Shown here: positions 18,028 to 19,119 of the stretch, in pieces
Layout: each line of letters opens with the position of its first letter
Position numbering within the stretch: position 1 is the stretch's first letter
From: Escherichia coli
GTDB taxonomy: Bacteria; Pseudomonadota; Gammaproteobacteria; Enterobacterales; Enterobacteriaceae
Length of the DNA stretch: 64,000 bases
Strand: one strand, 5' to 3'
NCBI RefSeq assembly: GCF_001677475.2
Contig: NZ_CP015229.1
Position numbers and translations under genes: made by a program
The notes under the pieces: model-generated
Seen by the model: the letters and a program-made list of their open reading frames with translations, nothing else
The model's database searches: none
What the model was told of the DNA's origin: nothing

Positions 18028-19119
18028 TTAGAACTGGTAAACCAGACCCAGAGCTACGATGTCATCAGTGTTGATGCCTGCAGCGCGGGTGAACTGGTTG
18101 TCGTCCAGCAGGTTGATTTTGTAGTCAACATAGGTGGACATGTTTTTGTTGAAGTAGTAAGTAGCACCAACATCAACATATTTCAGGATATCTTCGTCGT
18201 CGTAGCCACGACCCAGGTTTTTACCTTTAGACTGCAGGTAAGCCAAGGACGGACGCAGACCGAAGTCGAACTGGTACTGAGCAACAGCTTCGAAGTTCTG
18301 TGCTTTGTTCGCCCAACCCAGGGAACCTACGCGAGTTGCGTTGTAGGTCTGGGTGTACTGAGCAGCCAGGTAGATGTTGTTAGCGTCGTATTTCAGACCA
18401 CCAGTGTAGGTTTCAGCACGGTCGCCGTTACCGATGTACAGCGGGCTGTTCTGATCATCAGTACGTTTGGAGCTGGAGATCGCACCACCGATACCGAAGC
18501 CTTCGTAATCATAAGTGATAGATCCGCCAACGCCGTCGCCGTTCTGACGCAGAGCACCACGACCGTTGTTGGTCATGCCTTCGCCGCTTACGCTGCCGTT
18601 TTTACCCTGGTACTGAACAGCAAAGTTCAGGCCGTCAACCAGACCGAAGAAGTCAGTGTTACGGTAGGTCGCGAAGCCGTTACCACGCTGCTGCATGAAG
18701 TTGTCAGAACCGTAAGTGTCGCCACCGAATTCTGGCAGTACGTCGGTCCAGGAAGTTACGTCGTAAACTACGCCGTAGTTACGACCGTAGTCGAAAGAAC
18801 CTACATCCTGGAATTTCAGACCTGCGAATGCCACACGGGTCCAGGAGTTGTTTTCGTTTTCAGCGCTGTTGCCCTGGATCTGATATTCCCACTGGCCGTA
18901 ACCGGTCAGCTGGTCAGTAACCTGAGTTTCACCTTTGAAGCCAAGACGCATGTAGGTCTGGTCGCCATCTACAGACTTGTCGTCAGAGAAATAGTGCAGG
19001 CCGTCTACTTTACCGTACAGATCTAATTTGTTGCCGTCTTTGTTGTAAACTTCAGCAGCGTTTGCTGCGCCTGCTACCAGCAGAGCTGGGACCAGGAGGG
19101 ACAGTACTTTAACTTTCAT
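18028..19119 (-). CDS. ompC: outer membrane porin OmpC
   Basis: 363 aa ORF with signal peptide [21 protein letters not shown], porin beta-barrel and C-terminal ...VALGLVYQF. Confidence 0.95.

Follow-up and report, generated by a model that had tools for sequence, protein, structure and literature searches.

Natural variation of the OmpC porin of Escherichia coli has been catalogued by Beck et al. 2016 (PMC5056734), who distinguished more than 220 sequences among 2,707 predicted proteins; 33 variants of loop L4, 30 of L5 and 13 of L7 occur in many combinations. A short "c" class makes up 21 of the 33 listed L4 variants, so that the L4 form of K-12 is not the norm. Among the alleles illustrated in that work is UTI89 OmpC, having loops c6/a6/a and 342 residues in the mature protein, or 363 with the signal peptide (S1 Fig), and an excerpt of its S1 Table places ATCC 11775, RS218 and IMT5155 in one allele block.

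Specific loops of OmpC have been linked to recognition from outside the cell. Washizaki et al. (PMC5221442) report, citing unpublished data in both cases, that a substitution at a Phe of L4 abolishes T4 adsorption and that O157 OmpC is unusable by T4. Gp38 of phage PP01 needs the residues GVIN in L7 of O157 OmpC, and GVIN inserted in K-12 OmpC is sufficient for infection (PMC12892980). For the CDI effector CdiA-EC536, the recognition determinants are L4 and L5; in experiments UTI89 OmpC proved an efficient receptor, and recognition was unaffected when the CFT073 and 536 alleles had their L8 exchanged (PMC5056734). Colicin E9 uses OmpC as a poorer translocator than OmpF, a difference attributed to the eyelet (PMC8561637).

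Identity and integrity of the gene

The window, as the term is used here, is the whole 64,000-nt stretch of E. coli DNA that was analysed (assembly GCF_001677475.2, contig NZ_CP015229.1). Its ORF listing contains an intact, ATG-started frame of 363 aa (Table 1), and the identity of the product as OmpC is beyond doubt. The protein scored 762 bits with NCBIfam model NF007841, "porin OmpC", whose cutoff is 484; with the models for OmpF and PhoE it reached 493 and 466 bits, in each case less than the cutoff of that model (583 and 599, respectively). Pfam Porin_1 was matched over residues 27-363 (474 bits, E=3e-142). Residues 22-363 aligned end to end with residues 1-346 of 2J1N, the K-12 OmpC crystal sequence (E=2e-217), and also with residues 1-346 of 9WCB (E=4e-222), with a single 4-residue gap in each case. 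The 9WCB sequence is that of O157:H7 OmpC in every compared region.

The gene order apbE(ftp)-ompC-micF-rcsD, with ada and alkB on the apbE side, is the same in K-12; this comparison took in the K-12, ATCC 11775, O26 and O157 loci. A Sec signal peptide and a C-terminal Phe are needed for outer-membrane assembly of proteins of this kind. In a protein alignment of five alleles, the 21-residue signal peptide was identical to that of K-12 and the C-terminus, ending in LVYQF, was kept. The gene, its upstream region, micF and the terminator hairpin were checked for signs of a silenced or damaged gene, and none was seen in them. Over the 737 nt of the intergenic region, identity to K-12 is about 99%.

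Table 1. Features of the ompC locus and other elements of the window (positions in the 64,000-nt window; codons are those of the window allele unless K-12 numbering is given)
Feature	Position	Strand	Remarks
ompC CDS	18028..19119	-	363 codons plus stop; start and stop as in K-12
Signal peptide, codons 1-21	19057..19119	-	identical to K-12
L1, codons 45-51, SDDKSVD	18967..18987	-	N47D and D49S relative to K-12; same L1 in UTI89, O157 and CFT073
L4, codons 173-191, Beck type c6	18547..18603	-	12-nt gap site relative to K-12 at codons 180-182 (18574-18582)
L5, codons 219-233, Beck type a6	18421..18465	-	A226D, T229S, A230P and A231L relative to K-12 (K-12 numbering)
L7, codons 301-309, NLGRGYDDE, Beck type a	18193..18219	-	identical to K-12; without the GVIN insertion of O157-type alleles
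L8 and boundary, codons 337-353	18061..18111	-	A346 and D353; D and N in K-12 and ATCC 11775
G+C-rich hairpin followed by a T-run, resembling an intrinsic terminator	17990..18009	-	19 nt past the ompC stop codon
ompC 5' UTR, RBS (GAGGG) and promoter-proximal region, 180 nt	19120..19299	-	identical to K-12
micF small RNA	19453..19546	+	116 bits; full length with its own terminator hairpin; divergent from ompC
naRNA4 (Rfam; REP-derived nucleoid-associated RNA motif)	23206..23282	-	73 bits; between rcsB and rcsC; ordinary for E. coli
Chaperone-usher fimbrial operon, four genes	56086..61037	+	between glpC and yfaY

Because the barrel, L3, signal peptide, promoter-proximal region and micF all match K-12, the gene is expected to be expressed, under EnvZ/OmpR and MicC control, and its product to pass solutes, in the same way as in K-12. 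The product would be a 16-stranded, trimeric general porin. Overall, judging from sequence, the locus is best read as a normal, functional chromosomal ompC that carries one naturally occurring combination of surface loops, a reading to which we give a probability of about 0.95.

Loop positions were assigned by alignment to crystal-derived maps in the literature (2J1N; Beck et al. 2016, PMC5056734, S1 and S2 Fig), and this is adequate since the protein is 97-99% identical to solved OmpC sequences. AlphaFold2 models, made from the single sequence or from a 13-sequence alignment (OmpC alleles with K-12 OmpF, PhoE and OmpN), both reached a pLDDT of only about 32 and were discarded.

Length and substitutions relative to K-12

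The initial annotation recorded an ORF of 363 aa against a K-12 precursor of 367 aa, with the difference probably in a surface loop. Both points were borne out. Annotated MG1655 ompC is 1104 bp, or 367 codons, and the sole indel in the alignment with K-12 OmpC is a 12-nt in-frame gap lying inside extracellular L4 (mature residues 152-174 in the Beck/2J1N map). By protein alignment and codon-level comparison this only length change maps to K-12 codons 181-184, at a site where the codons are GAA GGC TTT ACT AGT GGC GTA ACT in K-12 but GAA GGC ATG ACC in the window. Since GGC codons flank the gap, it can be placed in two ways, with GFTS (mature 160-163) or FTSG (mature 161-164) absent. The missing segment holds the sole Phe of K-12 L4 (Phe161, mature numbering).

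The length mismatch with K-12 is the sole prompt for regarding the 363 aa as an artefact, whether of a wrong start codon, of a truncated ORF or pseudogene, or of an assembly error that lost 12 nt, and no support was found for any of these. K-12 has the same start codon, RBS context, signal peptide and stop, which rules out the signal peptide and the annotation as sources of the difference; the C-terminal VYQF is kept and the gap leaves the reading frame intact. The ATCC 11775, O26 and O157 alleles have the same short L4, in addition to the 21 short variants of the catalogue. The window sequence recurs with 100% identity in assembly GCA_033692955.1 along 7,092 bp that include ompC, and with 99.99% identity in another assembly; with the same 7,092 bp recovered identically in an independent assembly, the 12-nt gap is no assembly error. 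An artefact is accordingly so improbable that it hardly needs consideration, and the preferred reading remains an intact gene with a naturally short L4.

Apart from the gap, codon-level comparison with K-12 gave 42 nt mismatches, comprising 20 synonymous and 12 non-synonymous codon changes. In addition to the L1 and L5 substitutions of Table 1, these include N176S, P177V, V186M and D192G in L4 (precursor numbering), D350A in L8, and N357D, the first residue past L8 as that loop is drawn (both in K-12 precursor numbering). Thus 11 of the 12 amino-acid changes lie in extracellular loops L1, L4, L5 and L8, and the twelfth abuts L8. The eight loops together form 34% of the mature protein, and relative to uniform placement a count of 11 in 12 has a binomial P of 6e-5. 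Synonymous changes were likewise enriched in loop-coding DNA (12 of 20, P=0.016). This enrichment fits arrival of the loops as exchanged blocks of DNA, and is less well explained by point mutation under selection alone.

L3, the loop of the pore constriction, and the barrel have no amino-acid difference from K-12, although L3 has four synonymous changes. These residues bear on whether the allele might be a permeability variant of the sort selected in multidrug-resistant clinical isolates, in which antibiotic entry and not surface recognition would be altered. OmpC variants from a clinical series are known, with solved structures (2XE1-2XE5, 2XG6), and offer a precedent. Here, however, neither L3 nor any barrel residue departs from K-12, substitutions occur only in L1, L4, L5 and L8, and micF and the promoter-proximal region show no damage, making altered permeability an extremely unlikely explanation. 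A natural combination of surface loops on an unchanged pore accounts for the gene instead.

Related alleles, the L8 patch and the host lineage

When compared with the catalogue, L4, L5 and L7 of the window exactly match entries c6, a6 and a (L7 NLGRGYDD) of Beck S2 Table. The closest described proteins are those of UTI89, ATCC 11775 and RS218 (WP_000865556.1), which are alike in length (363/342 aa), in L1-L7 and in the barrel, and agree at 361 of 363 residues. From the ATCC 11775 allele the window protein differs only at D346A and N353D, both in L8. The DNA of the two is 98.4% identical with 17 nt differences, 14 of them synonymous and additional to the two L8 residues. The reverse relationship holds for CFT073, A35H and 6104H-like alleles (e.g. 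CFSAN061771, WP_000865538.1), which have the same L8 sequence as the window but a different L1, L2, L4 (b1 or d1) and L5 (a11), and only 92% overall protein identity; the sharing of L8 was seen for CFT073 and A35H in the Beck alignment and for CFSAN061771 directly.

The remaining two relatives differ in other ways. K-12 OmpC (NP_416719.1, 367 aa, 2J1N) shares locus, regulation, signal peptide, barrel, L2, L3, L6 and L7, with 95.5% DNA identity, whereas its L4 is four residues longer and 12 substitutions are spread across L1, L4, L5 and L8 (with N357D abutting the last). O157:H7 OmpC (WP_000865552.1, 367 aa) has the same L1, the same a6 form of L5, and the same short L4 except for one residue (c2 rather than c6, E to G); it departs from the window allele in having GVIN inserted in L7, the residues A212/V214 in strand beta-10, and an L8 of the D/N form. 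The length of 363 aa follows from a short L4 (c6), a short L5 (a6) and a short L7 (a) being combined in one protein.

The differences from ATCC 11775 are not evenly spread. Seven of the 17 fall within nt 1032-1074 of the gene, a stretch of 43 nt (window 18046-18088), and a max-chi2 permutation test gave p<0.0002. Over the 3' 303 nt there are 5 mismatches to CFSAN061771 (98.3%, the best match in the collection) and 11 to ATCC 11775; among the 5,426 complete E. coli genomes, the best match to the 5' 789 nt was 99.4%, and to the 3' 303 nt 98.3%. This pattern suggests a short gene-conversion tract at nt 1032-1074 as the source of the CFT073-type L8, and the L8 patch would fit modular exchange of loop-coding segments by recombination. 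As judged from these matches, the allele is mosaic, and each of its modules was known before.

Any novelty implied by the initial annotation did not stand, as the loop type is common and already catalogued, and the exact protein is deposited. The latter occurs in NCBI and UniRef (ANO90013.1, EFI6950600.1 and others) on 45 contigs, the longest of 5.50 Mb, and the identical ompC region is found in at least 24 NCBI assemblies. The identical DNA allele was not found among the 5,426 complete E. coli genomes, where the best whole-gene match was 98.4%, from which it appears that the pairing with this L8 is uncommon. Length was surveyed in 59 ompC genes, sampled at regular intervals from the similarity ranking of complete E. 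coli genomes. The gene was 1092 bp long in 4 of these genomes, 1095 bp in 5, 1098 bp in 1, 1104 bp in 27, 1107 bp in 2, 1113 bp in 1, 1122 bp in 6, 1125 bp in 5, 1128 bp in 5 and 1131 bp in 3. The 363-aa form is therefore the shortest class, at about 7% of complete genomes by this sample (4/59), and 367 aa is merely the commonest. In sum, the allele is an ordinary one that databases and the catalogue already include, and it adds no new loop type.

The DNA around the gene is more distinctive. Over positions 1-48000, identity between the window and the most similar of the 5,426 complete E. coli genomes is about 97-97.5% (13000-18027, 97.3%; 24000-48000, 97.1%; again as best matches among complete genomes), and the window is about equally far from the K-12, B2, O26 and O157 references. 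Identity of this order indicates a divergent lineage of E. coli as the source, one that the complete-genome collection lacks. The possibility that ompC is an imported island was examined and not borne out: there is no clear contrast with the flanks, and local identity fluctuates strongly, between 90 and 100%.

Several other features of the window were observed in passing. Divergence around ompC is strongly mosaic. Among core segments of the first 38 kb, identity to all three references is lowest at 16500-17500 (apbE/ada), with 93%, and at 32500-33500 (atoE/atoB), with 90-92%, whereas 21500-22500 (rcsD) is 100% identical to two references. Near 34070, between atoB and gyrA, the yfaP-yfaQ-yfaS-yfaT-yfaA cluster (alpha-2-macroglobulin) of about 8.7 kb is missing; it is present in K-12, CFSAN061771 and 23AR0806, and the alignment jumps from 35821 to 44553 of the K-12 locus. 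The fimbrial operon listed in Table 1 encodes a Fimbrial subunit of 196 aa, a PapD-type chaperone of 234 aa, an usher of 845 aa and a protein of 357 aa that ends in a Fimbrial domain. None of the 5,426 complete E. coli genomes has a counterpart (megablast coverage of 46000-64000 was at best 70%), and sensitive blastn for the operon recovered only a 270-nt core of the usher at about 70% identity; in strain PE164, rpnE lies at the site. Compared with the ompC allele, this operon is the more unusual feature.

Recognition from outside the cell

It had been suggested initially that the changed length may alter phage or antibody recognition. This suggestion gains indirect support from published work on alleles with the same loops, and recognition from outside the cell would be predicted to differ from that of K-12. 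The window allele is probably not a receptor for T4 gp37, since the sole L4 Phe is missing and the same short L4 is found in O157 OmpC. Because L7 has no GVIN, adsorption of the PP01 type, with use of the allele by gp38, is not expected either. By contrast with these phages, CdiA of E. coli 536, which targets OmpC/OmpF, should recognise the window allele efficiently, as its L4 and L5 are identical to those of UTI89. The accompanying remark that the OmpC loops are colicin receptors was loose, and is the weakest part of the original statement: colicin E9 uses OmpC through the lumen and the eyelet, and with the eyelet loop L3 unchanged here, the difference in L4 is not expected to matter for that colicin.

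A further interpretation is receptor escape, by a variant that is specific to this lineage and has a new specificity. The L8 patch, or the combination of L4, L5, L7 and L8, would then have been selected to block a phage, CDI system or antibody that reads the UTI89-type protein. The clustering of the L8 differences in a patch, the lack of the identical DNA allele in the 5,426 complete genomes and the divergent host lineage are all in keeping with this, and OmpC loops are under diversifying pressure (PMC5056734). On the other side, every loop module, including L8, already exists in other alleles, the CFT073/536 exchange of L8 was without effect on CdiA-EC536 recognition, and the enrichment of synonymous changes in loop DNA is a pattern of block exchange that does not require new point adaptation. 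Escape with a new specificity is thus very unlikely, and the ordinary mosaic allele described above is again the preferred reading.

A narrower form of the idea concerns the pairing itself, that is, UTI89-type L1-L7 with a CFT073-type L8 in a lineage some 2.5-3% diverged from all complete genomes examined. The pairing may reflect a selected gene conversion that changed recognition by an L8-reading phage, CDI effector or antibody. We regard this as very improbable; if true, conversion of L8 would have produced a functionally distinct receptor type, beyond another catalogued combination.

For OmpC as a family, modular variation of L4, L5 and L7 yields about ten length classes (363-376 aa), and the 367 aa of K-12 are simply the most frequent of these. 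Typing of these loops helps predict attack by OmpC-dependent phages, both T4-like (gp37) and PP01-like (gp38), and by CDI systems targeting OmpC/OmpF, and it is useful in choosing therapeutic phages.
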